From: Escherichia phage Ec_YwIITB1
DNA length: 64,000 nt
Direction: 5' to 3' (one strand)
Sequence record: PQ356294.1
Under the pieces are notes generated by a model, which was given only the letters and a program-made list of their open reading frames with translations, did not search any database and was not told the DNA's origin. A program made the position numbers and the translations under genes. Below, piece by piece: positions 3,553-38,045 of this stretch (the first letter of the stretch is position 1; every line of letters begins with the position of its first letter).

Positions 3553-3942
3553 TTAACGATTAAAATCGGCAGCAATTGTTTCCGCAACAAGTTGAGCAGC
3601 GACAATTAGGCGTTCATCTGCATTACCGCAATAATCGTCTTCAAGGCGCTCACCGCATGAAGTCATAATAAATTTAGCACCAGCATTTAAAGATTCTGTC
3701 GTATGTTTGCGCATTAGTTCAATCCATTTATTGCTTACTTCGCGATCGATAGCTTCATAATACGCATGACGAGCAGGTGCAGATTTAATTTTATTCTGAA
3801 TAACTTCCATTGCGTTATCAGAAAGAGACAAAACCCATGCTCGACGAATTTTATTTTGGTTTTGTGGATTTGAATCAGAACGCACATGTTTTGGCTGAAT
3901 ATCTTTTACATCAACAGTATAATTCACAGTAATTTTAGTCAT
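3553..3942 (-). CDS. rpbA: RNA polymerase binding protein RpbA-like
   Basis: 129 aa ORF between 45 and 46 as in T4. Confidence 0.6.
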
Positions 3943-3951
3943 AATACACCT

Positions 3952-4140
3952 TTAGTCATAATAATCAGTAACAGTCCAAGCTTCATTTCTGTTGGACATT
4001 ATTTTCGTATATTCTGCTTTAAATGCATTCTTAAGCATAGATTCAGTAACTATATGCTCTTCATTAGAAAAATTATTTCTCAGAATATATCGTTTTATTT
4101 CAGGAATAGTTAATAGATGCTGTCCAGTTGAATATTCCAT
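3952..4140 (-). CDS. small hypothetical protein (45.2 position)
   Basis: 62 aa ORF, T4 gene order. Confidence 0.6.
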   Translation of the reverse strand: MEYSTGQHLLTIPEIKRYILRNNFSNEEHIVTESMLKNAFKAEYTKIMSNRNEAWTVTDYYD

Positions 4141-4157
4141 GTTTTTCCTCCATAGAG

Positions 4158-4181
4158 ATTATACTCTAATAAATTAAAGCA
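4158..4181 (-). promoter_or_regulatory. MotA-type middle promoter (TGCTTTA box, 11 nt, TATAAT)
   Basis: Minus strand reads aTGCTTTAatttattagagTATAAT upstream of the 45.2/rpbA/45 block. Confidence 0.5.
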
Positions 4182-4195
4182 TAATCTCTTATAAA

Positions 4196-5878
4196 TTAAA
4201 CCATTACAGTAAATCGACCAACTTTCTTCATTTGAAGATGCTGACCATATTCTTGTGGGTCATGATCTTTATGTGAAATTATAAAAACATTAGTATTTTT
4301 TAAACTATCTAAAATAGTTGAAATAGCTTTTACACCTTCAACATCAGTTGCTGAATCAAAAACTTCATCGAGAATTAGTGTGTTTATTTTAACACCTGAA
4401 ACTTTTTCAGCAATATCACGCCAAGTAAATAAAAGAGCAATATCAATTCGTGCTTTTTCACCTTCACTAAATGAAGCATAACTAAAATCTTCACGACCAC
4501 GGGATTTAATTGTCTCATTAAATTCTTCATCTAATGTAAACACATAATCCGCTTCCATTATTTTAAGATAATGGTTAATCTGCTTATTAAATAATGGAAT
4601 GTACTTTTTAATAATAGCACCTTTAATACCAGAATCTTTGAGCATATCAGTCAAAATTCCTCTGTGGTATTTTTCCATTACCAAATTAGTTTTTGTCTTA
4701 ACAATTTTATCAAGTTCTTCTTGAAGCAGTGCTATTTCATCAGCATGGTCAATAAACTCAGATGATGCTTTTTCTATAGCTGCTTTAACTTTTTTAGCTT
4801 TATCTACAGTCGTGATTAGAGATTGCTTTTTATTGCGAATATCATTTGCCAACGTCTGCTGGGTTTTAATATTATCTCGGTATTCATCAACAAGAACTTT
4901 TAAATTATCACGATGTGTTGAAAGCTGTTCAAACGAATGTGTGCATTCAGAAACTTTATCTTTAATTTTAGAAACAACTTTATCACCGGAACTTAATTGT
5001 GACAAACAGGTTGGACATAATCCACCTTCGTGATACATATTAATGACTTTATTATACGAGTCAATTTTTGATTTAATTAAAAATGCTTCTTGACCGATTT
5101 TATTAAATGCATCAGTCGGGTCTTCATCCAAAACAATATTAACTAATCTTTCATTAGCTTCTTCTATTTCCGATTTTAGCGTTCTGGCTTCTTTTGCCAA
5201 ATCATCATACATATTCTGTAGACGAGTGAGGTTATCACCAGTTAATTTTTTCTGGCGTTCAACGTTATCATTATATATTTTAATTTGCTGGATAATACTA
5301 TCTTTTTTAACATCAAGCACTTGGTTTTGTGAATTTAATTCACGTATTAGTGCTTTATTGAGCTTATCCATTTCAGCTAATGTTCCTACTTCGAGCAGGT
5401 CTTCGACAAGCTTTCTTCTTGCAGGAGTGGATAGGCCCATAAAAGGGGTATATCCAGCCGTGCCGAGTACGACGATCTGTTTGAAACTGGCGTATGACAT
5501 TCCGATAAGCTGTTCAAATTCTGCTTGGAAATCTTTACTGCTGGCAGATTCATTAAGACGTGTACCGTTAACGGTGATTTCGAAAACATTCGGTTTTTGT
5601 CCTCTTTTGATGTAGTACTTTTTTTCATCATATTCCATCCACAGTTCAACTAAAAGTTCTTTCTTATTTGTGCTGTTTATTAATTGACCTTTCTTTACAT
5701 CACGAAATGGCTTGCCAAAAAGCCCAAATGTGATGGCTTCTAACATAGTAGACTTACCACCGCCATTTCGCCCGGTAATAAGAGTTTTTTGAACCTTATC
5801 TAGTTGAATGTCAATAGGATTTCCACCTACTGACATTATATTTTGATACCTAACTCGGTTTAATTTAAAATTCTTCAC
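4196..5878 (-). CDS. 46: recombination endonuclease subunit gp46 (Rad50/SbcC-like ATPase)
   Basis: 560 aa; Walker A GRNGGGKST; central coiled coil. Confidence 0.9.
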   Translation of the reverse strand: MKNFKLNRVRYQNIMSVGGNPIDIQLDKVQKTLITGRNGGGKSTMLEAITFGLFGKPFRDVKKGQLINSTNKKELLVELWMEYDEKKYYIKRGQKPNVFEITVNGTRLNESASSKDFQAEFEQLIGMSYASFKQIVVLGTAGYTPFMGLSTPARRKLVEDLLEVGTLAEMDKLNKALIRELNSQNQVLDVKKDSIIQQIKIYNDNVERQKKLTGDNLTRLQNMYDDLAKEARTLKSEIEEANERLVNIVLDEDPTDAFNKIGQEAFLIKSKIDSYNKVINMYHEGGLCPTCLSQLSSGDKVVSKIKDKVSECTHSFEQLSTHRDNLKVLVDEYRDNIKTQQTLANDIRNKKQSLITTVDKAKKVKAAIEKASSEFIDHADEIALLQEELDKIVKTKTNLVMEKYHRGILTDMLKDSGIKGAIIKKYIPLFNKQINHYLKIMEADYVFTLDEEFNETIKSRGREDFSYASFSEGEKARIDIALLFTWRDIAEKVSGVKINTLILDEVFDSATDVEGVKAISTILDSLKNTNVFIISHKDHDPQEYGQHLQMKKVGRFTVMV

Positions 5879-6090
5879 AAAAGATTCCTTTTAATGTATC
5901 TTTTAGACCATTCTATCATATCATCATAATCTAAAAAGTATTCATCAAATTCAGCCATGCAAACAACACCTTTCGCTGCTTTTGATGTGATATAAATTAT
6001 TCCAACATATCTAGAATCTTCTTCGGTGTAATCAATATTTGCTATGAATTCATCGTTAATGTCAAATGTCGAAAACTTCACAGTATGCAT
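5875..6090 (-). CDS. small hypothetical protein (46.1 position)
   Basis: Start trimmed to ATG 6088-6090 with TAAGGA RBS. Confidence 0.55.
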   Translation of the reverse strand: MHTVKFSTFDINDEFIANIDYTEEDSRYVGIIYITSKAAKGVVCMAEFDEYFLDYDDMIEWSKRYIKRNLL

Positions 6091-6325
6091 CCTTAATACA
6101 AGATACAGCCATATCTTGTAATGATTTAGGTGTGTCATTATCTAAAATGTTGAAGTTAAAAGATACAGCCCAATCAGTGCAGACCGTAACCTTTTTAATA
6201 CAATTATCTTCAATCTCTAGCGGTTCAAACCAATATTCAATAATTTCTTTATGCCCAATATCATCTTTTACTTCGCATTCAAAATGCTGACTCATCATAA
6301 CATTTTTAAATTCATCAAAAGTCAT
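6062..6325 (-). CDS. small hypothetical protein (46.2 position)
   Basis: 87 aa ORF overlapping neighbours. Confidence 0.55.
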   Translation of the reverse strand: MTFDEFKNVMMSQHFECEVKDDIGHKEIIEYWFEPLEIEDNCIKKVTVCTDWAVSFNFNILDNDTPKSLQDMAVSCIKDAYCEVFDI

Positions 6326-7341
6326 TGTGTTGCCTCTACATATAACTGATTTGCATATTGAATAAGTGCTTCGCGGTCAGAATCAGTGATGTCTGGAATT
6401 GCATTAATGTATTCTTCCATTAACGTCTGAAGAGATTGAACTTCAACTTCTTCGCTATCATCTGACTCGACAGAGTTATCAATCTTTGACACAACTCGTA
6501 ATGAATGCACAACTTTTTCTAGTTCAGATTCGAACTTCGTCAGATTTTTGTCTACTTCAGTTACTATAACACGTACTGATAGATTTGTAAAATCTTTATA
6601 GTCAATTTTTCCCTTAAATGGATATTGAATTCGACGATGCCAGGTAGTGCTGTTTGGAATAAATTCCATTCGTTCTGTTTCTGTATCAAACATCCAGAAC
6701 CCGCGAGGGTCATTCTCGTCACCTGCAGTTAGTGTCCATGGTGTCCCAATATATCTGACGTTAGCAGCCTCAGAGATAGTATGGAAGTGACCAGACCACA
6801 CCTCTTTATAAGTCTTAAGGAAATCAGGTTCAAGACCGTGAGATTTCATTCCTTTATAAAAATAAAATCCATTCAGCTCCCAGTGACCAACACAAAAAGA
6901 AGCAGATGAAGTTTTGATGTGCTCAAGAATTTCACCAGTATTTTCTTCACACATCCAAGGAATTAAATCAATCAAACATCCGTCAAAATCTACTGTAGTA
7001 GGCTTATCATATACTTTAACATTAGGATATTTAGCCAAAAGCTCAGTAGAAGCATTTGGATGCATTACATTTTTGTAGTGGAGATCGTGATTTCCTACAA
7101 TAGTATGTAATGTGATTCCAGCATCATCAAGCATTTGAACTATTTCACGAGCGAACTCCATAGTTTTATGTGTGATTGCTTTTCGCACATCAAAAATATC
7201 GCCGTATTGAATCCATACAGTAATTCCGTTTTTCTTAGAATATTCTATTGCTTGTTTAATTCCATCAATTTGAATACCGCGAATCCACTCATCATCAGCT
7301 TTAACGCCTAAATGCCAATCACCCAAGTTTAGTATTTTCAT
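6322..7341 (-). CDS. 47: recombination nuclease gp47 (Mre11/SbcD-like phosphoesterase)
   Basis: 339 aa; metallophosphoesterase motifs (GDWH, GNHD). Confidence 0.9.
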   Translation of the reverse strand: MKILNLGDWHLGVKADDEWIRGIQIDGIKQAIEYSKKNGITVWIQYGDIFDVRKAITHKTMEFAREIVQMLDDAGITLHTIVGNHDLHYKNVMHPNASTELLAKYPNVKVYDKPTTVDFDGCLIDLIPWMCEENTGEILEHIKTSSASFCVGHWELNGFYFYKGMKSHGLEPDFLKTYKEVWSGHFHTISEAANVRYIGTPWTLTAGDENDPRGFWMFDTETERMEFIPNSTTWHRRIQYPFKGKIDYKDFTNLSVRVIVTEVDKNLTKFESELEKVVHSLRVVSKIDNSVESDDSEEVEVQSLQTLMEEYINAIPDITDSDREALIQYANQLYVEATQ

Positions 7342-8978: not shown

Positions 8979-9169
8979 TTTTTGACTTGATAGGAATCAA
9001 CCCACACTTTCATATTAGGGTCTGCTCTTACAATAGGAGGATTAACTTCTTTAATTGAACTATCATGGTATTCTTTTTCAGAAATTTTCACACAAAGATG
9101 ACCGTTCAAAGATTCAGTAAATCCTGCATTAATTTTAAGACGCTTGAATTTTACGTTTGTAAGCATCAA
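8963..9169 (-). CDS. hypothetical protein
   Basis: 68 aa ORF. Confidence 0.5.
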   Translation of the reverse strand: MMLTNVKFKRLKINAGFTESLNGHLCVKISEKEYHDSSIKEVNPPIVRADPNMKVWVDSYQVKKWWQL

Positions 9170-9452
9170 TCATATCCTCAATCTGCGATCTAGTAGTCTT
9201 CCAAAGAATACTAATGAGTTCATCGTTATATGGCTGTTTTAGAATATCCCGACTTTTCTTGATAGCATATTCGTATTGAGCAAAATTATTGTTTTCAGCT
9301 GCAATCTGAGCGTGCTTATAAAGACGGTTCAGTTCGCGTTTATTTTTAGACAATAACTTATTTGCTTTTCTTTCTGCTTCAAGACGGTTCTTTTCTTCAA
9401 TAGAAGAAATAAGCTTTTCCACTTCATCATTAATTTCGGGTTTATCAGTCAT
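9135..9452 (-). CDS. hypothetical protein
   Basis: 105 aa ORF. Confidence 0.55.
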   Translation of the reverse strand: MTDKPEINDEVEKLISSIEEKNRLEAERKANKLLSKNKRELNRLYKHAQIAAENNNFAQYEYAIKKSRDILKQPYNDELISILWKTTRSQIEDMIDAYKRKIQAS

Positions 9453-9453
9453 A

Positions 9454-9672
9454 TTATTTCTCTAATATAAAATAAAAATCATCATCTGTTAAATGATACC
9501 GATAGTTTAATTCTACACCATTAGATTTAAAAGCGGTATCGTACGGATTTTCTGGATCAATATCAATGTCAAGAGCTAAAACTTCCCTGAGATACATTTT
9601 AAGTAAATAGGGAATAGCTTCAACTTCAGGTATTTCTTCCAAGAATCCGGAGAGGTTAATCGTTAGCCTCAT
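9454..9672 (-). CDS. hypothetical protein
   Basis: 72 aa ORF with ATG start. Confidence 0.55.
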
Positions 9673-10213
9673 ATAAAAAATCCAAACTAGGAGAATCGTC
9701 TACAACACTTTTCTTTTCAGCCCCCGGTGTTCTATAGGTTGATTCTTCGTAATGCGTCATTTTATCGTAGATGTCTTGAATAAAAGTTTCATCCACTAAC
9801 GCAACCATATCGTCGTCACGACTGTCATAGACATTGTGAACGAAGTAACTGTATTTCTTTGCAACTTCCTTACGTTCTTTTTTAATACGTTGGACGAATG
9901 CATTAAAACAAGCTTGAGTTATATATGCATGCGGGTTTTTATATTTCGTTTCATCAAAATTATGAAGCCCCTTAATAGAAGCTTCTATACCATCTGCAAT
10001 CATTTCTTGTTTCCAGGATTGGGTGTATCCTGAAAAGTTGAAACGTTTAGATAAGCCTTCTGCAATAAGCATAATGGCTAATCCGATAGTATCATTCTGA
10101 CGAACTACTTTATTTGGGTCTTTATTATTTGCTAATTCTGTTTTCCAATCAATAATAGCTTGTAAAAGCTCTTTATTGTTTACGTAATTATATTTAGGCT
10201 TAGTTTCTGACAT
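9656..10213 (-). CDS. 55: late sigma factor gp55
   Basis: Start trimmed to ATG 10211-10213 (MSETK, 185 aa) with GAGGTGA RBS; T4 order after a-gt. Confidence 0.85.
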
Positions 10214-15503: not shown

Positions 15504-15738
15504 AATAAACCCTTACCTTAAATAGATAAGGGTATTTATTATTTTCAAGTATTGTAAAACATTTGATGCAATCGCTTATATTGCCGAATCGTTTGGTCAG
15601 AAAAAGAATCTTTTTAGTAGGACGAGAATAAGTTCCTACACAAGTGGTCATATTAGAGTCGGTAGGACTTCCTTTAATAAAAAGTTTCCAAACCTTACCA
15701 CCATTTAACTTTTCAGTATAAATTAATTCGGTTTTCAT
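15478..15738 (-). CDS. hypothetical protein
   Basis: 86 aa ORF overlapping the gene 49 start. Confidence 0.45.
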   Translation of the reverse strand: MKTELIYTEKLNGGKVWKLFIKGSPTDSNMTTCVGTYSRPTKKILFLTKRFGNISDCIKCFTILENNKYPYLFKVRVYYVIDWQII

Positions 15739-16202
15739 TAAAACGCTCGGTCAGAAAAAGAATTTTGAGTTTCAAGCCATTCAATATATTCTGCTGCAGC
15801 TTGCATTAAATTACCTTCATAGCCATCATTATTTTCTTGTGCAGCTAATTTAGCTAATGCATATGAAATACGTTCACCTTGAAAATCAGCTTTAGGCTTA
15901 TGAAGAGCTTGATCAACTCTCTCTACAACTTCTTCAATTTCGCCATTTTCCACTGATTCAATATTCCACAAGCACCAATACGTAATTGGCTTATCATAGA
16001 TGTTAATAATCTTTCCATCAGAAAGTTCAATTTCAATAATTCCAGTATCAGGTTCTATATCATCTTCGCATTCTTTTGCAAGTTCACGAACTTTAAAGAC
16101 AGTACCTGCACTAAGTTCCGGCCAATAATTACACAGCCCTTTATCAGCACGATTAATTCTAAACCACTTATCTACTGTAATCATGTCCCATCTCCATATC
16201 AA
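15738..16202 (-). CDS. hypothetical protein (pin position in T4 order)
   Basis: 154 aa ORF; name not assigned. Confidence 0.55.
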   Translation of the reverse strand: MIWRWDMITVDKWFRINRADKGLCNYWPELSAGTVFKVRELAKECEDDIEPDTGIIEIELSDGKIINIYDKPITYWCLWNIESVENGEIEEVVERVDQALHKPKADFQGERISYALAKLAAQENNDGYEGNLMQAAAEYIEWLETQNSFSDRAF

Positions 16203-16307: not shown

Positions 16308-16628
16308 TTATAGCGTAATCCATTCTCGTATTGTCTGAGTTACTACACGTTCACGAGGCTCGACTAGTTCAACAGTCGGAACTGCATAATACCAGTCAGA
16401 ATGATAAGAACCTGAGCGAGTTTCATTTACAGACACATGAACGTTATGTTTTGGACTAAAATAAACACACTGACGATATTGGCATTTACCATCTTGCACC
16501 CAGTCTTCTATTTCGATAGGTTTAAGATAATCCGAAAAATCGAAATCATAATTTTCTGAAAATGCATCATGGTCTTCGATGATTTCGCTCAGAACTGCAT
16601 CAACATCTAATTTATTTTCAATAGTCAT
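16308..16628 (-). CDS. hypothetical protein
   Basis: 106 aa ORF. Confidence 0.55.
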   Translation of the reverse strand: MTIENKLDVDAVLSEIIEDHDAFSENYDFDFSDYLKPIEIEDWVQDGKCQYRQCVYFSPKHNVHVSVNETRSGSYHSDWYYAVPTVELVEPRERVVTQTIREWITL

Positions 16629-16638
16629 TTTTCACCAA

Positions 16639-17028
16639 TTAATTTCGCAATTTATTAAGTTCTTCGTAATCAATCCAGGATTCTAGTCCTGATGGCAAAT
16701 CAGATTCAATTTCCCAAAGAAGCTCTTCAATTTTCTGAAGACGATCTAATTCTTCAGCAGGAATAGTAACCATTGACGGAGTTCTTGATACGCTAATATC
16801 GTAAATCATATTTACCCCCAGTTTGACCATACAATCGCCGTATTTCCATTTAGAAATAGACTTTTCACCATTAGAATAATAAACTTCGAGTTTAGCACGG
16901 TTATTTTTAATTTGAATAACCTTTGCTGTCATCAAAGTTCCATACCCATAGTAAACTGCGACTTCATCACCTACATATACCGCGCTTCCGCGGTAGTCAT
17001 GGATATAATCAGTTCCTTCGAGCATCAT
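16639..17028 (-). CDS. hypothetical protein
   Basis: 129 aa ORF. Confidence 0.55.
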   Translation of the reverse strand: MMLEGTDYIHDYRGSAVYVGDEVAVYYGYGTLMTAKVIQIKNNRAKLEVYYSNGEKSISKWKYGDCMVKLGVNMIYDISVSRTPSMVTIPAEELDRLQKIEELLWEIESDLPSGLESWIDYEELNKLRN

Positions 17029-17288
17029 TTAAAGTATTCCCGCAATTGGTCAAATCCACCAATATGACTTCCATCAGGAGCAAATACTTGCGGCATTGTC
17101 AGACCAATTTGAGTATCACGACCTAGTTTCGTCAGAAGCTCAGCGATTTTCTCATCATCAAAAACACCTTTTTCTGGCATAATGTTGATAAATTCAAACG
17201 GATGTTTCTTTACGGTCAAAAGACGTTTTGCATTATCACAATACACGCATTTATGGATACTGCTATCATAACCATATACTTTAAACAT
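17025..17288 (-). CDS. nrdC: phage thioredoxin/glutaredoxin
   Basis: 87 aa; CVYC active site. Confidence 0.85.
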   Translation of the reverse strand: MFKVYGYDSSIHKCVYCDNAKRLLTVKKHPFEFINIMPEKGVFDDEKIAELLTKLGRDTQIGLTMPQVFAPDGSHIGGFDQLREYFK

Positions 17289-17289
17289 A

Positions 17290-17532
17290 TTATTCCTTAA
17301 TTCCTAGTACTTGTTTAAAAGTCTCGTCGTAATCAAGACTTTGGCCAGTTTGTTCTTTATGTTTGTATATAATATCACTTACTTCTGATAGCATATTTTT
17401 ATATGAACGAGTTAAAGCAGATTTAAGCACGCTGTATCTATCAGGAAATTTACCATGTTCATTATAATACGCTATTGCTAATTCACGGACTGCCTTTTCA
17501 GCAGTCTCCATATATTCTTTACGCTTGGTCAT
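17290..17532 (-). CDS. hypothetical protein
   Basis: Start trimmed to ATG 17530-17532. Confidence 0.5.
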
Positions 17533-17533
17533 T

Positions 17534-17875
17534 TTAATCCAAAATATTATTAGGCATTGGTTGAACACTCGCAAGTTCTTCTCGGTCAAATCTGTGTTTA
17601 CAATGGCGACATTTATAACGAAGATTATTAGTCTGCCAATGGACTAATTGCACCTGTTCAGTTCCACACTCAGGGCAATTAGGAACGTTTTTAGAAGCCC
17701 TTTCGCGACGTTCAACCATGACCATTACGGAATCCCAATTAATAGGGCTGCTATAATCATCACAACCGTGAATCTTTCCACGCATTTCCAGATCGTCTTC
17801 TTCACCAGCCATAATAATTTTAATTAGACTAGAATTACTTGAAGTTGCAATGTCTTCTAATAGACGCTTTTTCAT
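17534..17875 (-). CDS. zinc-ribbon protein
   Basis: 113 aa; CPECG...CRHC motifs. Confidence 0.55.
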
Positions 17876-18801
17876 TTCAATACCTCAATAGCATTACGTA
17901 AACCATTTGCTTTTGCATTAAGAGCTTTTAACAATTTGGTGTGTTCTGCAATTTGGGCTTCAACTTCAATTAAACGAGCATTGAGATATTCGCGTTCTTC
18001 GCTCAGGTTATCAACCTTTTCTACTTTAGGTTCTTTTACAGCTGTCTTATATGTATTAGGGTTCTTCAGTTTAATTAGAATGCGTGAACTGTATAACATT
18101 GAACCATTATCTTCGGTTTCATCATACATTTCTACTACGTCCATGATTTTTAACATCATGCGAAGTTTATAAGACAACGAACGAATAGTTTTGTTGTGCT
18201 TATTAATTTCTTTAGCGTTCATGGTGCCAAGATTACGTGAGTAATAATAAGGAACCTGGATATTAATTAGTACTGATGAACCACCTGGCTTATGTGTTAC
18301 TTCATCAGCAATAACCCAGTCCTTAACATGAACTGTATTTGTACGGTCATCGCCCATGGTAAACAGTTTGCGAGCATGCTTAAAAAGCATATTCACTTGG
18401 TCATTGAATTGACAAGCGAATTTATCAGCAAATTTAGTTTCAGGAATGGTAGATAACCAATCAGCCAAGTGGGTCTTTTTAACATCGTTAACAATAGTAA
18501 ATTCAACCAAATCGGTTATAGATGTTGCAGATTTAATGAAGCTTGGCTTCATAAAGTTTTTAATGTTCTCGTGAGCTACAGTAGAAGATAACATACGAGA
18601 ACGTTTAAACCATTCAAGCAAATTGCCCAACGAATGAGAATAAGCGTTCTGAGTATCTTTACAGATATGATTTTCCTGGCCAACATATTGAAGGAAATCA
18701 CGAAGAATATTATTGATTACTGCTCTGTGTCCGATATTATAATTACGATGTTTAGTAATAAGGCTGTCAAAATAATCAATATAATGTTTACGAGTTTTCA
18801 T
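17872..18801 (-). CDS. hypothetical protein, paralog family member
   Basis: 309 aa; C-terminal coiled coil; shares motifs with 18854.., 20212.., 20948.. Confidence 0.6.
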   Translation of the reverse strand: MKTRKHYIDYFDSLITKHRNYNIGHRAVINNILRDFLQYVGQENHICKDTQNAYSHSLGNLLEWFKRSRMLSSTVAHENIKNFMKPSFIKSATSITDLVEFTIVNDVKKTHLADWLSTIPETKFADKFACQFNDQVNMLFKHARKLFTMGDDRTNTVHVKDWVIADEVTHKPGGSSVLINIQVPYYYSRNLGTMNAKEINKHNKTIRSLSYKLRMMLKIMDVVEMYDETEDNGSMLYSSRILIKLKNPNTYKTAVKEPKVEKVDNLSEEREYLNARLIEVEAQIAEHTKLLKALNAKANGLRNAIEVLK

Positions 18802-18853
18802 GTTCTTCTCACTTGGTTAATGATTTATACTCCGAGCCATCCTTGGCTTTAAA

Positions 18854-19855
18854 TTACTTAATTAACTGTAAAGCTTGTTCTAGACGATCCAGATGATTAA
18901 CAGATTCTTCCCAAATCCTTTTAGCTTGCTCATATTCTTTCTGCGCTTTATTAGAAATTTCTAGAGCTTCTTTATAAGCTTTTTCTAGTGCAATAACTTC
19001 TGGACGAATTTCTACAGGTTCAGGCGAATCGTCAAGACATTCCATTAGTTCCTCAAGTGTAATTTCTTCTTTAGGAGTATTCACAATTTCATCACATTTT
19101 TGTTGATAAATTTCTTTATCAGTCGGTGAGTACGCACATTTCACTTCACGGAGACTAACTACAATTTTATATCCTTCCCAACCGCATATATTCTTAAAAG
19201 GATACGTATGAATATTTTCTACTGTTTCCATACAAAGTAATGCGGTTTCTAATTGACGAGTTATAGTGCTAGCAATTGAGAAAAATTTATTAATGTTCTT
19301 TTGGTTAGTTTCTGGTGTAAAAAATCCATAATTCACAAAAATAGATACTTTATTTTTATCAAGTTCATATTCTTTTATGATAATCATATCAGAAGCCAAA
19401 GGATGAATTTGACGATAATCGCCATAGCATAATTTAGAAGCTGATTTTAGAATTTGCTTTTTGAAAAGTCTGAAATTACTAATCCAACGACGAGTAAAAA
19501 TATTCTCAGGGTCTTCTTTATTATTAAGATGATATGAATTAACATCACCGAACCAATTATATCCTACTACATCTTTAGTTCGTTTAATTTCTTTCCCAAA
19601 TTTACCGAGAATATCTTGGTTAACTAAATATGAAAGAAGACGAGAACCTTTGAAGGTTTCCTTAATATCATCTTTATATTCGCGACTAGAAATTTTATGA
19701 ACTTCATGAATAAATTTGTTGGAAGAGACAATACTTGCATCAGTATTATTGAGCCATTGATTGATAATGGAAATAACACTATTCTGACTAGACACAGGTT
19801 TAACTTTATCATCAATAACGCTATTGAATGATTTGATATATTCGTTACGAGTCAT
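18854..19855 (-). CDS. hypothetical protein, paralog family member
   Basis: Start trimmed to ATG 19853-19855 (MTRNEY) with GAGGAG RBS; 333 aa. Confidence 0.6.
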   Translation of the reverse strand: MTRNEYIKSFNSVIDDKVKPVSSQNSVISIINQWLNNTDASIVSSNKFIHEVHKISSREYKDDIKETFKGSRLLSYLVNQDILGKFGKEIKRTKDVVGYNWFGDVNSYHLNNKEDPENIFTRRWISNFRLFKKQILKSASKLCYGDYRQIHPLASDMIIIKEYELDKNKVSIFVNYGFFTPETNQKNINKFFSIASTITRQLETALLCMETVENIHTYPFKNICGWEGYKIVVSLREVKCAYSPTDKEIYQQKCDEIVNTPKEEITLEELMECLDDSPEPVEIRPEVIALEKAYKEALEISNKAQKEYEQAKRIWEESVNHLDRLEQALQLIK

Positions 19856-19883
19856 ATTAATCTCCTCAGTAGAAAGTAAGAAC

Positions 19884-19913
19884 ATTATACCACATCCTTG
19901 TGGCAAAGTAAAC
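19884..19913 (-). promoter_or_regulatory. early-type promoter (GTTTAC, 18 nt, TATAAT)
   Basis: Minus strand GTTTAC at 19908-19913 and TATAAT at 19884-19889 upstream of 18854..19855. Confidence 0.5.
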
Positions 19914-20173
19914 TAGTTTAGTGCATTTAGTGCATTGTTCAGTTTAGAACGTTGCTTCGTAAGATTTTTGACTTTTTCTTGAGCTTTTTCTAGCATCTTT
20001 TCAGCTTCTAACACTTCATTAGTTGCTTTAACGAGTTCATCATCTACTGCCTTGATGGACTTCTCAATCGCATCCGCATGCCATTTTTCAACAGGTTTAA
20101 GACTCGGATTTTCAACAGGAAGAAAATTCGCTTTATTGAATTTCCATGCATCTTCATTACCTGAACTATACAT
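19913..20173 (-). CDS. hypothetical coiled-coil protein
   Basis: 86 aa ORF. Confidence 0.5.
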   Translation of the reverse strand: MYSSGNEDAWKFNKANFLPVENPSLKPVEKWHADAIEKSIKAVDDELVKATNEVLEAEKMLEKAQEKVKNLTKQRSKLNNALNALN

Positions 20174-20211
20174 CCAAAATTTAGGATCGTTTGATGAGTA
20201 ATTGGATAAAT

Positions 20212-20877
20212 TTAAGTTATCTTGTACTTCATGCTTTTTCTCTTGAACGGAACTTCATCCTTTCTCAAAAAATCGTATTTAAATGAAACGATCATATCAA
20301 GTTCATACGTTGTTGTATGTTCCCAATTTCGCTCAAAATGAGGTAAAATCTTAGACTGAACTGCGGCAACAACATCCATATACTTAAATGCTTCTGTCAA
20401 CTGTGATTTAAGGCATTCGCAAATTGAAAGAGAATTTTTTGTATTAGGTTTAAAGCTAATTCGCGCAGTTCTGCTATTTTCTTTTAATGGTCTTACTTCC
20501 ATCTGAAGAGTATAACCATCAAATTTCAGATTCTTTAAGTTAATATCAGAACCTTTTAATCGACTCGCAATTGATAAAATTTGTTTTAATTGTTTACGGA
20601 ATAGAGCAATAAATCTCCATTCAATACGATAATGATTTGGATTGAAAAATCCAGATGATAAATCGACCTTACTTTGGCCGACACCTTGAACAAATAGAGG
20701 ATTTTTATAATTAATGGTTTTACAGAAATCAGTGAGCTGCTCACGAGCAGTCATTTGTGTAATATATCCTGCTTGGTTAAAATTGCGCACCCATTCACTG
20801 CTGTTCAGATGTTTAAAGGCATGAATGGAACAATTAACTTTACCAAGGTCTAAATTATTTTGACACAAAAACGTCAT
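20212..20877 (-). CDS. hypothetical protein, paralog family member, preceded by a coupled leader ORF
   Basis: 221 aa; ATG overlaps the leader stop as ATGA. Confidence 0.55.
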   Translation of the reverse strand: MTFLCQNNLDLGKVNCSIHAFKHLNSSEWVRNFNQAGYITQMTAREQLTDFCKTINYKNPLFVQGVGQSKVDLSSGFFNPNHYRIEWRFIALFRKQLKQILSIASRLKGSDINLKNLKFDGYTLQMEVRPLKENSRTARISFKPNTKNSLSICECLKSQLTEAFKYMDVVAAVQSKILPHFERNWEHTTTYELDMIVSFKYDFLRKDEVPFKRKSMKYKIT

Positions 20878-20939
20878 AGCATCACGAGTATAGCTGGCAT
20901 TACGAGAACCATATCTTCAATTTGAGAACGAGTTTTCAT
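20874..20939 (-). CDS. 21-codon leader ORF (MKTRSQIEDMVLVMPAILVML)
   Basis: Strong AAGGAATA RBS and ATG at 20937-20939; stop overlaps the next ATG. Confidence 0.35.
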   Translation of the reverse strand: MKTRSQIEDMVLVMPAILVML

Positions 20940-20947
20940 GGTATTCC

Positions 20948-21853
20948 TTAAGATTTAAGTAAATCGACAATTTTAATTAACTTTTCACGCTCAGATTTAG
21001 CTTTACTACTCAGTCCAGATAGTCTGAAAATTTCATCATCATATTGTTGAATAGAAATATTCAGCTCTTCAATCTGTTTATTAAAATAATCAATTTGTTC
21101 AGAATGTTTTTCGTTACTACGAACCGGTACAGGTTTTGTAGGCAATGTAGTTGAACTGGATTCATTCGGGCGATAAATTAAAATACAACTTGAACCAATA
21201 GGACATTTTGCCCCAGATGAATATTCTAATGTTCCAGCTTCTTTTAAAACTTCAAAAGCTAAACATAGATGATGGCCCATATTGACATAATCTGTAGAGT
21301 GAGCTCTGATGTAATAATCATCTCCACGAATACTAAATTTAAAGCATTTAAGGTCTTCTGTATTATTGGTCTTAAAAATCATTTGTTTATCTAGACCTTT
21401 AGCTAATCGAGCGCCTAATGCTAATAATCGGCGTTGATTTTCCCACAAATCCGTAATCATTTGATCGAATGATAATTTTGGCATTAGTCGACCATAAAGG
21501 TCATATCCTTTATTATAATTACGAAGGATTTCACTCGCGTTAATACGAGATAATGCTCCAATTTTATTAAGGGCTTTCATAATGCGATTAGATAAACTCA
21601 TTCCAGATCCGTTTGTTCGCTGCAAATGTTTTTCTAATCCAAATCCAATATCAACTTTAAACTTATCTAAAATTTCGGCATGAACATCTTTATCAATAAC
21701 ATCCAAATCCAGAGCTGAGTTAAATCTATGAAAAAATTTATCTGGCTCTGCACTGCGAAATACAGTCCATTCATTCATCATTTTTTTATTAACTAAAGAT
21801 TTAATTACTGCATTGACATTATTAATTACTACTGACATACTTTCCTCACTCAA
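20948..21853 (-). CDS. hypothetical protein
   Basis: 301 aa ORF. Confidence 0.6.
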   Translation of the reverse strand: MSEESMSVVINNVNAVIKSLVNKKMMNEWTVFRSAEPDKFFHRFNSALDLDVIDKDVHAEILDKFKVDIGFGLEKHLQRTNGSGMSLSNRIMKALNKIGALSRINASEILRNYNKGYDLYGRLMPKLSFDQMITDLWENQRRLLALGARLAKGLDKQMIFKTNNTEDLKCFKFSIRGDDYYIRAHSTDYVNMGHHLCLAFEVLKEAGTLEYSSGAKCPIGSSCILIYRPNESSSTTLPTKPVPVRSNEKHSEQIDYFNKQIEELNISIQQYDDEIFRLSGLSSKAKSEREKLIKIVDLLKS

Positions 21854-22247
21854 TTTTACTAAATATACAGAATAAGATGGAACAGACTATATAAGCACCA
21901 CACACAGATTGAACTAATACCATTCCAAAGAACCAAACAATATTATCAAACAATGTCTGTTTTACGTCGAAAGGACGTAAACTTACAGTAATATTATCAC
22001 CTTTTTCTATTGAAGAATACATCTCTGGGGAAATATATTCACTAAATCTATAACCGTCTTTGAGTTCATATACGGCAATAAACGATAAATTAGACCCTTT
22101 TCCTTGTGTTCCTGTAATGGTATTAACTACAGTAACACCATAATCTTTATAATGCATATAATCATTAATTGCGTAATAACCATATGCAATTACTACACAT
22201 AAACAACATATCAATAAATTCAATCTTTTAATTATCAACCGTTTCAT
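21846..22247 (-). CDS. membrane protein
   Basis: N-terminal and C-terminal hydrophobic helices; start trimmed to ATG 22245-22247. Confidence 0.55.
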   Translation of the reverse strand: MKRLIIKRLNLLICCLCVVIAYGYYAINDYMHYKDYGVTVVNTITGTQGKGSNLSFIAVYELKDGYRFSEYISPEMYSSIEKGDNITVSLRPFDVKQTLFDNIVWFFGMVLVQSVCGAYIVCSILFCIFSKIE

Positions 22248-22275
22248 AATAATCTCAATTAAAGGGCTTAGAACC

Positions 22276-22299
22276 ATTATACCATCCTTGGTATAAAGC
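22276..22299 (-). promoter_or_regulatory. MotA-type middle promoter
   Basis: Minus strand GCTTTA + 12 nt + TATAAT. Confidence 0.45.
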
Positions 22300-22301
22300 G
22301 G

Positions 22302-22829
22302 TTATGCGAGTACCGTCTTTAACCGTTCTTCAAACTTCCGAAGAGTATTTTGGCGTTCAGCTCTTTGCTTTTTGTAAGTTTCAATACGCTCTGAAATGAG
22401 AGTGTATCGTTCATTTACCGATTCTTTCATAAAATCAGGAATTTCACGAGAAGCTTTAATCTCGTCAAATTTATCAATAACAGCTTGCTCTTCAGCAATT
22501 AAATTATCATACATTAAAATATCTTTCTTGATGAACTCAATATCTTCTTGAGTTACACGAGATAATTTAGATGCTTTATCCTTTTTGTACTGTTTATTAG
22601 TATCACGAGACCAGTGCAATGTACGATTTTTATTCGTATTTTTGTAAATTTCTACAATACCGATCTCATCAATAATAACGATCCAATTCCAACGGGATTT
22701 GTAAATTTGTCCTCCATCAACAGTGATTTCACCTCCGATTGAGATGTCGTTAAAGAACTTGCTTTGTGCTTCAGATTTAAATTTACCATCGTTGTAATTT
22801 ACCAAGTTGAAAATATCTTTAGCGTTCAT
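22302..22829 (-). CDS. hypothetical protein
   Basis: 175 aa; GGAGG RBS. Confidence 0.6.
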   Translation of the reverse strand: MNAKDIFNLVNYNDGKFKSEAQSKFFNDISIGGEITVDGGQIYKSRWNWIVIIDEIGIVEIYKNTNKNRTLHWSRDTNKQYKKDKASKLSRVTQEDIEFIKKDILMYDNLIAEEQAVIDKFDEIKASREIPDFMKESVNERYTLISERIETYKKQRAERQNTLRKFEERLKTVLA

Positions 22830-24344: not shown

Positions 24345-24374
24345 TAAAATAAAAAAGGGAGCCCGAAGGCTCCC
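24345..24374 (-). terminator. intrinsic terminator (7 bp GC stem, UUCG loop, U run)
   Basis: gggagcc-cgaa-ggctccc followed on minus strand by UUUUUU; downstream of 24377..25390. Confidence 0.7.
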
Positions 24375-24376
24375 TA

Positions 24377-36808: not shown

Positions 36809-37278
36809 TCAGTGATAAAATTATTTAAATTTTGAGCATATTTCTTTTCATCAAAAATCTTTTGTTGCCTGCGCATCCGCCATGGCATTTCAATGAACAT
36901 GTACCATATTCCTGATAATATTGATGCTGTAAAAATATTAACAAGTATGATTAAAAGAATCCAATCTTCCGTTCTGCCTACTGGACTTTCTATAAAAAAG
37001 CAAAATACAAATGATGACACAGGAAAACTAATGATATACCACAGAATCATAATCTTATCTGTGAACCATTCAGCATTCGTTAACTTAGCACGGCCATTAT
37101 GAATACACACGAATTTATCATCTGTTACAGTAGATGGCTTAACTGCTTGATATCCCATTCTAAACTCCCTAATTAATCGTTTCTTTGTATCTTCAGAACA
37201 GCCGCTCCAGTCAACTCTATCAACTGAAATGCCATCGTCCCCATCATCTAAATCATACCAGTGAGTTTTTAAAATCAT
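36790..37278 (-). CDS. membrane protein (tail ...ECRKLK)
   Basis: 162 aa; two TM helices; translationally coupled. Confidence 0.6.
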   Translation of the reverse strand: MILKTHWYDLDDGDDGISVDRVDWSGCSEDTKKRLIREFRMGYQAVKPSTVTDDKFVCIHNGRAKLTNAEWFTDKIMILWYIISFPVSSFVFCFFIESPVGRTEDWILLIILVNIFTASILSGIWYMFIEMPWRMRRQQKIFDEKKYAQNLNNFITECRKLK

Positions 37279-37592
37279 TTAATTTTCCTACAATCACTCA
37301 CAAACTCTTCCATTGATTCTTTTTCAATATAAGACATATAGCTATTATATTCCTTTAATTGTATTTTGTAATCCTTTTTTCTTTGCCAATTTATTTTAAA
37401 ATTATCATAATGAAAATATAACATGGTACCAAAGAATGAAAATAATGAAATCGCTATAGTATAATGAAGTTCACTCCAAACTTCTATTATATCTACTATA
37501 CCGCTGACGTTACTGCGGATGTTTAAAATAAAACAGTCAATTAACAATCCAATAAAAACTACCCGCAAGAGCTGCAGCCAATGCCACAGCAA
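37275..37592 (-). CDS. membrane protein (tail ...DCRKIK)
   Basis: 105 aa; two N-terminal TM helices; stop overlaps the next ATG. Confidence 0.6.
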   Translation of the reverse strand: MLWHWLQLLRVVFIGLLIDCFILNIRSNVSGIVDIIEVWSELHYTIAISLFSFFGTMLYFHYDNFKINWQRKKDYKIQLKEYNSYMSYIEKESMEEFVSDCRKIK

Positions 37593-37631
37593 AAATTGAA
37601 AATGACTCAGAAAAAGAATATTTGACTTTAT

Positions 37632-38045
37632 TTAGTTTTGGCTTTTGCATCGTGATTCCTTAACAAATTTCATAATTTCATCAAATTCATACATATCTAG
37701 CTTAAGCTGGTGTTCCTTTTTAATCTTTTTACACTGAGCTTTCCAATCACGTACGCGTTTACGATAATGTCTTCCTTGATACCAGTATCCTACCCAATTT
37801 ACAGGTACTAATAAAAGCGGAACTACCAATGGAAGAATTAGTGTTGCTCCAAATATTACACCAGATTCAATATCAGTCATAACGTCTATAACCATTCCAG
37901 CAATCACCAAAATCACAAATGATACAGCTACCACAGGACCTATTAACACATCAGTAGAAATTAGCTGACGCTTTGGTTCATACTTCACGGGTTTACTTGG
38001 AAGGTATAGTGATGGCTTTGACATATTCTCTACATTCCTTAACAA
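37632..38045 (-). CDS. membrane protein
   Basis: 137 aa; TM hairpin; basic C-terminal helix. Confidence 0.6.
   Translation of the reverse strand: MLRNVENMSKPSLYLPSKPVKYEPKRQLISTDVLIGPVVAVSFVILVIAGMVIDVMTDIESGVIFGATLILPLVVPLLLVPVNWVGYWYQGRHYRKRVRDWKAQCKKIKKEHQLKLDMYEFDEIMKFVKESRCKSQN

Follow-up and report, generated by a model that had tools for sequence, protein, structure and literature searches.

The nrdC.3 to nrdC.6 block

The DNA analysed here (from here: the window) is a stretch of 64,000 nt from Escherichia phage Ec_YwIITB1 (PQ356294.1), a T4-like phage of the genus Tequatrovirus. The four ORFs 17872..18801, 18854..19855, 20212..20877 and 20948..21853, which had originally been proposed to form a paralogous family, were all found at these positions on the minus strand. 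They correspond to the T-even phage genes nrdC.3, nrdC.4, nrdC.5 and nrdC.6, respectively, and this identity is backed by synteny with annotated relatives including T4. The first gene is syntenic with annotated nrdC.3 of vB_SsoM_113, RB32, T2 and T4; its product shares only 60.5% identity with that of T4 nrdC.3 and therefore represents a second allele class. The homologues of nrdC.4 fall into the precomputed Pfam family PF26897 (Phage_T4_Y04OP), while nrdC.6 belongs to PHROG 2257 and to the precomputed Pfam family PF26899 (Phage_T4_Y05B). The ORF proposed as the fourth family member does exist, but it likely starts at the ATG at position 21838, which is preceded by GAGGA, rather than at the TTG at position 21853, which lacks a ribosome-binding site. 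The nrdC.5 locus is flanked by nrdC.4 and nrdC.6, all in one orientation, as the position of its family requires. Overall, the finding is ordinary in that these are known T4-type genes, non-essential and early. The coordinates of all features are collected in Table 1.

Table 1. Genes, gene fragments and insertions in and around the nrdC.3 to nrdC.6 block of the window.
Feature	Coordinates	Strand	Description
Gene 49.2 candidate	16308..16628	-	106-aa ORF; identity from position and length against the T4 annotation, not from alignment
nrdC.1	17290..17532	-	80 aa from ATG at 17532, intact
nrdC.3	17872..18801	-	309 aa, intact; nrdC.4 paralogue
nrdC.4	18854..19855	-	333 aa, intact; strong GAGGAG ribosome-binding site
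nrdC.5 locus	19913..20939	-	Pfam DUF7235; three ORFs in three frames
nrdC.5 fragment 3	19913..20173	-	86 codons; C-terminal coiled-coil tail
nrdC.5 fragment 2	20212..20877	-	221 codons; residues 21 to ~233 plus short out-of-frame end
Insertion 2	20246..20247	-	2 extra bases, TT on coding strand; CCGTTCAAG here, CCGCAAG or CCACAAG in relatives
nrdC.5 fragment 1 (former "leader ORF")	20874..20939	-	codons 1-11 plus 10 out-of-frame codons
Insertion 1	20906..20907	-	2 extra bases, TC on coding strand; GGTTCTCGT here, GGTTCGT in relatives
nrdC.6	20948..21838	-	296 aa from ATG at 21838, intact
nrdC.8	22302..22829	-	175 aa, intact; PHROG 2274

Structure of the nrdC.5 locus

The gene nrdC.5, which normally comprises 340 codons, is split here by two 2-base insertions into ORFs of 21, 221 and 86 codons, and the locus measures 1027 bp instead of the normal 1023 bp. 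Alignment to the intact 340-codon nrdC.5 of three relatives yielded two +2 insertions and placed each piece in a different frame; tblastn with RB32 nrdC.5 recovered the pieces in frames -3, -2 and -1. Fragments 2 and 3 match Pfam DUF7235 in order (positions 21-207 with 238 bits and positions 230-307 with 114.8 bits), both far above the cut-off (gathering score of 30 bits), and in the frame of fragment 3 the homology reaches upstream to about position 20245. Due to the two +2 insertions, the uninterrupted ORF of ~335-342 codons that is a hallmark of the family is missing from this locus. Because its pieces lie in three frames, we interpret the locus as a disrupted allele of the NrdC.5/DUF7235 family. 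Once the four inserted bases are removed, an ORF of 340 aa is regained, identical at 333 of 340 positions (98%) to that of vB_SsoM_113, the closest relative. The locus corresponds in identity and position to T4 NrdC.5 (DUF7235/PF23882; PHROG 2351), which is 90% identical to the repaired window sequence.

The original prediction had described the 20212 member as split in two by a leader ORF. The split was borne out, but into three pieces, the 86-codon ORF being the tail according to its match to DUF7235 positions 230-307. Likewise, the coiled-coil C-terminal tails ascribed to all members do not extend to ORF 20212..20877, whose tail is that separate ORF. The second frameshift, the third fragment and the identity of the gene as nrdC.5 had been overlooked.

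The 21-codon ORF reads MKTRSQIEDMVLVMPAILVML, and its stop codon TGA overlaps the ATG of fragment 2, which is Met21 of nrdC.5, as ATGA, just as had been described. It had been left open whether this ORF was a frameshifted N-terminus or a coupled leader peptide. The former proved correct: the first 11 residues are those with which the intact nrdC.5 of relatives begins, the 2-base TC insertion follows them, and the ORF uses the gene's own AAGGA ribosome-binding site. A functional upstream ORF, with termination at ATGA driving re-initiation of the 221-codon protein, would be in line with the overlap and with the good ribosome-binding site of the short ORF. However, such an ORF is not conserved separately in the relatives (0 of 495 phage records with the insertion), and it is composed of the true nrdC.5 N-terminus plus frameshifted codons. 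Moreover, the downstream ORF is in turn cut short by the second frameshift, is devoid of the tail and lacks its own ribosome-binding site in the upstream sequence checked. The 21-codon ORF was thus rejected as a leader, being nothing other than codons 1-11 of nrdC.5 plus out-of-frame codons. The ATGA arose from the shift, as the first stop codon in the new frame overlaps the internal Met21 codon by chance. Insertion 1 thus created both the "leader ORF" and its overlap by accident; as an evolved feature the leader is already refuted, and we assign it practically no probability.

Insertion 1 was absent from 495 phage records, in which the best match covered 69/71 positions with exactly that gap, and also from viral contigs, for which a positive control was run. 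Insertion 2 was absent from 493 phage records (best match 72/74) and from viral contigs as well. The nrdC.5 of the window was the sole case seen of two frameshifts in one gene. Both insertions might be sequencing or assembly errors in the record, nrdC.5 of the real phage being intact. Their uniqueness among about 495 relatives would fit such an origin, as would the lack of extra substitutions marking a long decay, the perfect ORF obtained once exactly 4 bases are removed and one further frameshift-like difference in the window, located in e.3. Nevertheless, the insertions consist of 2 bases each and lie outside homopolymer runs, and there were no frameshifts in long essential genes over the roughly 50 kb compared. 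Nor is the window sequence error-ridden in general: when 69 RB32 ORFs with a minimum length of 90 aa were compared with it, signs of disruption were confined to nrdC.5, e.3 and the end of pin.

Independent broken nrdC.5 alleles also occur in natural assemblies (Q194 turned into a stop, codon 247 hit by a +1 insertion; two Logan assemblies), and nrdC.4 or nrdC.6 is split in T2 and in another relative (L010), so that loss is common in this block. The lesions in T2 nrdC.4 and nrdC.6 and in nrdC.5 of the two Logan assemblies are likewise inactivating frameshift or nonsense mutations, but they differ from the insertions described here and represent independent events. In addition, five of the nine lineage-specific substitutions in nrdC.5 are non-synonymous, and D76N and N155S affect otherwise invariant residues. 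We consider an error in the record unlikely on these grounds; most likely, nrdC.5 is present here as a recent loss-of-function allele. Its lineage-specific substitutions amount to 0.87%, compared with 0.95-2.3% in the neighbouring genes; as there is no excess, any inactivation must be recent.

Alternatively, ribosomal frameshifting could rebuild a nearly full-length NrdC.5, or fragments such as the 86-aa coiled-coil tail could be functional alone. Sequence inspection revealed a run of five A just 3′ of insertion 2, at which a -1 slip of the P-site tRNA would restore the frame, but the canonical slippery heptamer X XXY YYZ was found at neither insertion site, two separate -1 events would be required, and the two-frame arrangement is unique to the window. 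The 86-aa tail ORF arises in an independent broken allele too, and P0231, a protein whose N-terminus is unrelated, has the identical tail; yet an internal Met codon explains the recurrence of this ORF, and no ribosome-binding site precedes it in the upstream sequence checked. Recoding or a functional split is thus very improbable compared with plain loss of function.

Relationships among the four proteins

In BLASTP, nrdC.3 and nrdC.4 align over 226 aa with 25% identity (E 9e-7). Their matches to PHROG 1435 span the whole profile (positions 1-334/334), with E values of 3e-115 and 8e-165, respectively, and both are full-length members of the T4 NrdC.3/NrdC.4 family (PF26897, PHROG 1435). Comparison by hhalign gave a probability of 97.7% (E 2e-12) for nrdC.3 against nrdC.4 and of 94.9% (E 5e-8, 254 colinear columns) for nrdC.4 against nrdC.5. 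With the coiled-coil tails cut off, the E values were 9e-13 and 6e-7, respectively, while reversed-sequence controls gave 0.07-0.7 (0.12-0.16 for the nrdC.5 test). The match of nrdC.5 to the PHROG 1435/PF26897 family is colinear, with hhalign probabilities of 92-95%, and independent of the coiled coil. Judged by these sequence comparisons, the paralogy of nrdC.3, nrdC.4 and nrdC.5 is real. The nrdC block in other genera lacks nrdC.3, which is a Tequatrovirus-specific extra copy of nrdC.4.

The position of nrdC.6 is less clear-cut. Its match to nrdC.3 (hhalign E 6e-4) is driven by the tail; without tails, the profiles gave E values of 0.02-0.2, which are not significant and close to the reversed controls. 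The predicted four-member family therefore stands for nrdC.3, nrdC.4 and nrdC.5, whose pairwise similarity is well above chance, but not for nrdC.6 at the sequence level. In the AlphaFold2 model of nrdC.4 (pLDDT 82.9), a helical bundle forms the N-terminal part, an alpha/beta domain the middle and a helix (residues 285-332) the C-terminal part; the elements of the nrdC.6 model (pLDDT 75.3) follow in the same order. In the plan common to the two models, the N-terminal helical bundle is followed by a small middle domain of the beta-beta/alpha/beta-beta type, then by a variable linker and finally by a C-terminal coiled coil of 45-55 residues, at whose end lies a motif resembling L-x-x-A-[LI]-x-x-L-[KN]. 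In Foldseek, the nrdC.4 model matched JS10 nrdC.6 with E 1.5e-5 and probability 1.0 over 358 columns, and searches with the nrdC.4 and nrdC.6 models converged on shared neighbours, proteins of 300-370 aa from other T4-like phages.

It is possible, although we regard it as the weaker reading, that nrdC.6 is no paralogue and acquired its coiled-coil tail and common small alpha/beta fold by convergence or module exchange. The values obtained without tails point in this direction, as do TM-scores of only 0.35-0.48 and the capacity of tails to shift between proteins, illustrated by P0231. On the other side stand the order of secondary-structure elements, which matches over the whole length, the Foldseek results and the location of nrdC.6 next to its putative paralogues, at similar size, in all genera examined. 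From the predicted structures, nrdC.6 is probably related to nrdC.3, nrdC.4 and nrdC.5 at a remote, structural level, and the four genes probably constitute one diverged family of proteins of roughly 300-340 aa. Databases keep nrdC.5 (PF23882) and nrdC.6 (PF26899) apart from PF26897; the link made here draws on remote homology and predicted structure.

Counter-defence functions in and around the block

T4 nrdC.5 restores infection on hosts with Dsr1, a sirtuin (NAD-depleting) defence (Srikant et al. 2022, PMC9391042), and Dsr1 senses major capsid proteins via its TPR domain (2026 preprint, PMC12803255). This rescue refers to the T4 allele only; with its two frameshifts, the window allele is unable to code for the 340-aa protein. 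Provided that the sequence is free of error, the phage should have lost protection against Dsr1. Published transposon screens classified nrdC.3 to nrdC.6 as dispensable on laboratory E. coli K-12, and the passages of the HIDEN-SEQ preprint that were consulted report no phenotype for these genes.

No enzyme signature was found, which counts in support of the most likely reading, namely that the family members act by binding rather than as enzymes. Every paralogue would have a host immune protein of its own as target, and NrdC.5 would bind Dsr1 and thereby block its activation. DSAD1 of SPbeta-like phages, an anti-DSR2 protein, is a functional analogue, as it binds and neutralises a defence-associated sirtuin (PMC10973363 and PMC11087589). 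Taken as a whole, the reading of nrdC.3 to nrdC.6 as one family of counter-defence binding proteins with a broken nrdC.5 has, in our estimate, a probability of about 0.78. By this model, nrdC.3, nrdC.4 and nrdC.6 may be counter-defence genes as well, and as candidates they provide a useful lead.

Published counter-defence genes flank the block, namely 49.2, nrdC.1 and an nrdC.8 orthologue. T6 gp49.2 inhibits OLD (PMC13096335), T4 nrdC.1 inhibits Septu (HIDEN-SEQ preprint), and bas37_0203, of which nrdC.8 is the orthologue by position and length, inhibits Druantia type III (same preprint and its supplement file 3). Like the 300-aa family, these three belong to the minus-strand block and are early and non-essential. 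They are small genes, each becoming necessary when the host carries a particular defence. By sequence they are unrelated to the 300-aa family, to which nrdC.8 shows a weak Foldseek signal only.

Gene map and reading frames of nrdC.5

The source of the window is a T4-like phage (Tequatrovirus), and its orientation is the same as in the T4 GenBank record. By megablast, segment 17500-22300 matched 707 phage records, 462 of which span most of the region; the closest relatives are ~96.6% identical across the whole region. Gene names were assigned by synteny with the annotated genomes of vB_SsoM_113, RB32, T2 and T4.

Genes of the nrdC-nrdC.8 block in the window
Gene	Position	Strand	Basis of name
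nrdC	17025-17288	-	synteny
nrdC.1	17290-17532	-	synteny
nrdC.2	17534-17875	-	synteny
nrdC.3	17872-18801	-	synteny
nrdC.4	18854-19855	-	synteny
nrdC.5	19913-20939	-	synteny
nrdC.6	20948-21838	-	synteny
nrdC.7	21846-22277	-	synteny
nrdC.8	22302-22829	-	synteny

All ORFs of the original prediction are present, the 21-codon ORF with its ATGA overlap among them. Judged from the sequence, the ATG at 21838 is the most likely start of nrdC.6, with GAGGA ahead of it; no ribosome-binding site precedes the TTG at 21853.

The nrdC.5 interval comprises 1027 bp here, against 1023 bp in relatives, where one ORF of 340 codons fills it. Alignment to relatives located two insertions, TC at 20906-20907 (GGTTCTCGT here versus GGTTCGT in relatives) and TT at 20246-20247, which leave three reading frames of 21 (20874-20939), 221 (20212-20877) and 86 codons (19913-20173). 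NrdC.5 retains its true N-terminus in the first 11 residues, MKTRSQIEDMV, after which comes the 2-base insertion TC. The 221-codon ORF begins at the codon of the internal Met21, which the first stop in the shifted frame overlaps by chance, hence the ATGA. Both larger pieces match the Pfam family DUF7235, the 221-aa one at profile positions 21-207 and the 86-aa one at 230-307. Removal of the four bases restores a stop-free ORF of 340 aa, identical to NrdC.5 of vB_SsoM_113 at 333/340 residues and to T4 NrdC.5 at 90%. No ribosome-binding site was found in the sequence upstream of the 221-codon and 86-codon fragments. Of the two explanations offered for the short ORF, the frameshifted N-terminus was borne out, whereas a coupled leader peptide is refuted, the ORF being the NrdC.5 N-terminus plus shifted frame. 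The reported split is real, but a second frameshift and the tail fragment had been overlooked. Annotation should treat the ORFs of 21, 221 and 86 codons as a single nrdC.5, flagged as disrupted, rather than as a leader plus novel genes. The disrupted allele is newly described here.

In the gap separating the nrdC.5 stop from the nrdC.4 start, a promoter-like site (19884-19912; TTTACT, 17-nt spacer, TATAAT, extended -10 TG) is overlapped by a hairpin, and nrdC.10 has a strong GC-rich hairpin plus T-run upstream of it (24356-24375); these are consensus matches only. The promoter scan yielded 31 sites compared with 34.6 in shuffled sequence, i.e. no excess.

Origin of the nrdC.5 insertions

Neither insertion occurs in the ~495 phage records containing that part of nrdC.5, the best matches (69/71 and 72/74) lacking exactly the inserted bases, nor in viral contigs, in which a control pattern finds three intact copies. 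That the insertions are an artefact is improbable in our judgement, and we regard nrdC.5 here as a recent genuine loss-of-function allele (probability about 0.75-0.8). Both insertions lie outside homopolymers, and comparison of the window with 69 RB32 ORFs (90 aa or longer) shows apparent disruption in just three places: nrdC.5, e.3 and the end of pin. Independent nrdC.5 knockouts exist in ERR11812329 (an additional C at codon 247, giving 250 + 86 aa) and in SRR25533081 (Q194 to stop, giving 193 + 121 aa). Broken genes are common in this block: in the T2 record (NC_054931) nrdC.4 and nrdC.6 each form two ORFs (locus positions 1498-2437 and 3585-4418), and another relative (L010, 4971-6003) has a split nrdC.4. 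Lineage-specific substitutions are not raised in nrdC.5 (0.87% versus 0.95-2.3% in neighbours), which counts against long decay. They comprise 4 synonymous and 5 non-synonymous changes, too few for test power; among the latter, D76N and N155S alter residues that are otherwise invariant.

Regarding the other two genes, the e.3 homologue (37275-37650, minus strand) looks frameshifted relative to RB32, with tblastn pieces in two frames; after an ORF of 37 aa (37537..37650) comes one of 105 aa with a TTG start (37275..37592). The C-terminus of the pin homologue (15548-16202, minus strand) corresponds to RB32 pin in a second frame ~130 bp further on; an insertion or a variant end may account for this.

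Relationships among nrdC.3, nrdC.4, nrdC.5 and nrdC.6

The products of nrdC.3 and nrdC.4 share 25% identity across 226 aa (BLASTP, E 9e-7) and common families (PHROG 1435; Pfam PF26897, Phage_T4_Y04OP). More remote similarity was evaluated by hhalign, using profiles built from database hits and loci of other genera.

Profile-profile comparisons, with and without the coiled-coil tails
Comparison	hhalign E, full length	hhalign E, without tails
nrdC.3 / nrdC.4	2e-12 (probability 97.7%)	9e-13
nrdC.4 / nrdC.5	5e-8 (probability 94.9%, 254 colinear columns)	6e-7
nrdC.3 / nrdC.5	0.003 (tail only)	4e-3 (167 colinear columns)
nrdC.3 / nrdC.6	6e-4 (tail-driven)	0.23
nrdC.4 / nrdC.6	0.031	0.023
nrdC.5 / nrdC.6	0.053	0.04
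Reversed-sequence controls	0.07-0.7	0.13-0.65
Controls against nrdC.8	0.05-0.2	

With tail-free E values of 0.023-0.23, nrdC.6 is not significantly similar by sequence, and a merged nrdC.3/4/5 profile matched it at an unconvincing E of 0.01. The proposed paralogous family holds by profile for nrdC.3, nrdC.4 and nrdC.5; nrdC.6 probably joins it, through predicted structure.

The AlphaFold2 models of nrdC.4 (pLDDT 82.9) and nrdC.6 (pLDDT 75.3) have the same element order. An N-terminal bundle of helices comes first, then two or three helices and a beta-beta/alpha/beta-beta domain; a linker of low confidence and a long helix at the C-terminus complete the chain. In a search of BFVD, the model of nrdC.4 matched a 308-aa protein of Yersinia phage fPS-65 (E 4e-9), probably nrdC.3, and JS10 nrdC.6 (E 1.5e-5, probability 1.0). 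The two models share uncharacterised hits of 300-370 aa from T4-like phages of Pectobacterium, Enterobacter, Acinetobacter and Yersinia; that of nrdC.4 additionally matches a protein of an Erwinia phage and, in Acj61, two adjacent genes. While the genes, the function of nrdC.5 and the nrdC.3/nrdC.4 paralogy (PHROGs, Pfam) were known beforehand, the remote links to this family of nrdC.5, from sequence profiles, and of nrdC.6, from predicted structure, are new.

A 175-aa protein of Klebsiella phage KPV15, of nrdC.8 length, was a weak Foldseek match of both models (E 0.01 and 0.13), and nrdC.8 might on this basis be a short relative of the 300-aa family; hhalign detected no similarity between nrdC.8 and the family.

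An exhaustive HMM search of 1.8 billion representative proteins with the nrdC.5 profile gave 13 hits, all nrdC.5-like or coiled-coil tails, with no tie to other families, no cellular homologues and nothing beyond this phage group. Pfam and NCBIfam scans revealed no enzyme or known domain, and PDB sequence searches (T4 nrdC.5; nrdC.4 and nrdC.6 profiles) no solved relative. Sub-threshold matches to an integrase N-terminal SAM-like domain (nrdC.3 residues 30-86) and to a PHL domain were weak and judged to be noise.

Counter-defence context and gene turnover

Dsr1 is a SIR2 NADase. When expressed on its own, T4 nrdC.5 lets a deletion mutant plate again on Dsr1 cells (PMC9391042), and the TPR sensor of Dsr1 recognises major capsid proteins according to a 2026 preprint (PMC12803255). 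Nearby genes encode further inhibitors: T6 gp49.2 acts on OLD (PMC13096335) and, according to the HIDEN-SEQ preprint, T4 nrdC.1 on Septu and bas37_0203 on Druantia III. As the 528-bp gene following nrdC.7 in the Bas37 table, bas37_0203 is by position and length the nrdC.8 orthologue and was rejected as a member of the 300-aa family. The same preprint describes nrdC.3 to nrdC.6 as non-essential on K-12 for T4 and Bas37.

Given the function of nrdC.5, the neighbouring inhibitors and the absence of an enzyme signature or solved relative, we infer that the family may act as stoichiometric, non-enzymatic inhibitors of host immune proteins. Tentatively, and with rather low confidence, the four genes could form a diversifying, T4-like-specific array of sensor blockers, each directed at a different host immune receptor, as nrdC.5 is at Dsr1. 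Candidate targets would be other proteins with an Avs7/Dsr1-type TPR sensor, the gpU-like middle domain would provide a decoy surface, and recurrent knockouts, fusions and allele replacements would be an arms-race footprint. The predicted phenotype of this phage is sensitivity to Dsr1-bearing E. coli, which bears on host-range prediction for therapeutic T4-like phages. With three paralogues adjacent to an anti-Dsr1 gene, nrdC.3, nrdC.4 and nrdC.6 become candidate new counter-defence genes, as do their counterparts in T4-like phages of Acinetobacter, Klebsiella, Pectobacterium, Erwinia and Serratia.

In other Tevenvirinae genera the block consists of nrdC.8, nrdC.6, an nrdC.5-like gene, nrdC.4 and nrdC.2; since nrdC.3 is missing there, it is a Tequatrovirus-specific copy. 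The window nrdC.3 is 60.5% identical to that of T4 (T4 reference locus 5934-6860), compared with 85-92% for nrdC.4, nrdC.5 and nrdC.6, so that a single genus has two nrdC.3 allele classes. The knockouts, together with an nrdC.5::nrdC.3 fusion and a tail swap, exemplify fast loss and rebuilding of such genes.

The fusion, a 299-aa protein (P0056; locus L025, 1953-3944), joins nrdC.5(146-268) to nrdC.3(138-309), i.e. nrdC.4 was deleted between paralogues; nrdC.4 is also missing from the SRR25533081 assembly. A 173-aa protein (P0231) combines an unrelated 118-aa N-terminus with the exact nrdC.5 coiled-coil tail, which suggests that this tail is exchangeable as a module. The 378-aa form of nrdC.6 in Shigella phage Sf25 (P0121) carries an internal 82-residue tandem duplication (IRAHSTDYVNMGHH...FNKQIEEL twice). 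In the T4 reference, nrdC.6 (locus positions 9067-9894) is annotated with 275 aa and gives two tblastn pieces, versus 296 aa in other records and the HIDEN-SEQ T4 annotation, likely an old sequence or annotation difference. In phage Pinarejo (PP925831.1, 50018-50158), nrdC.6 is reduced to its last 47 codons, which are unannotated.
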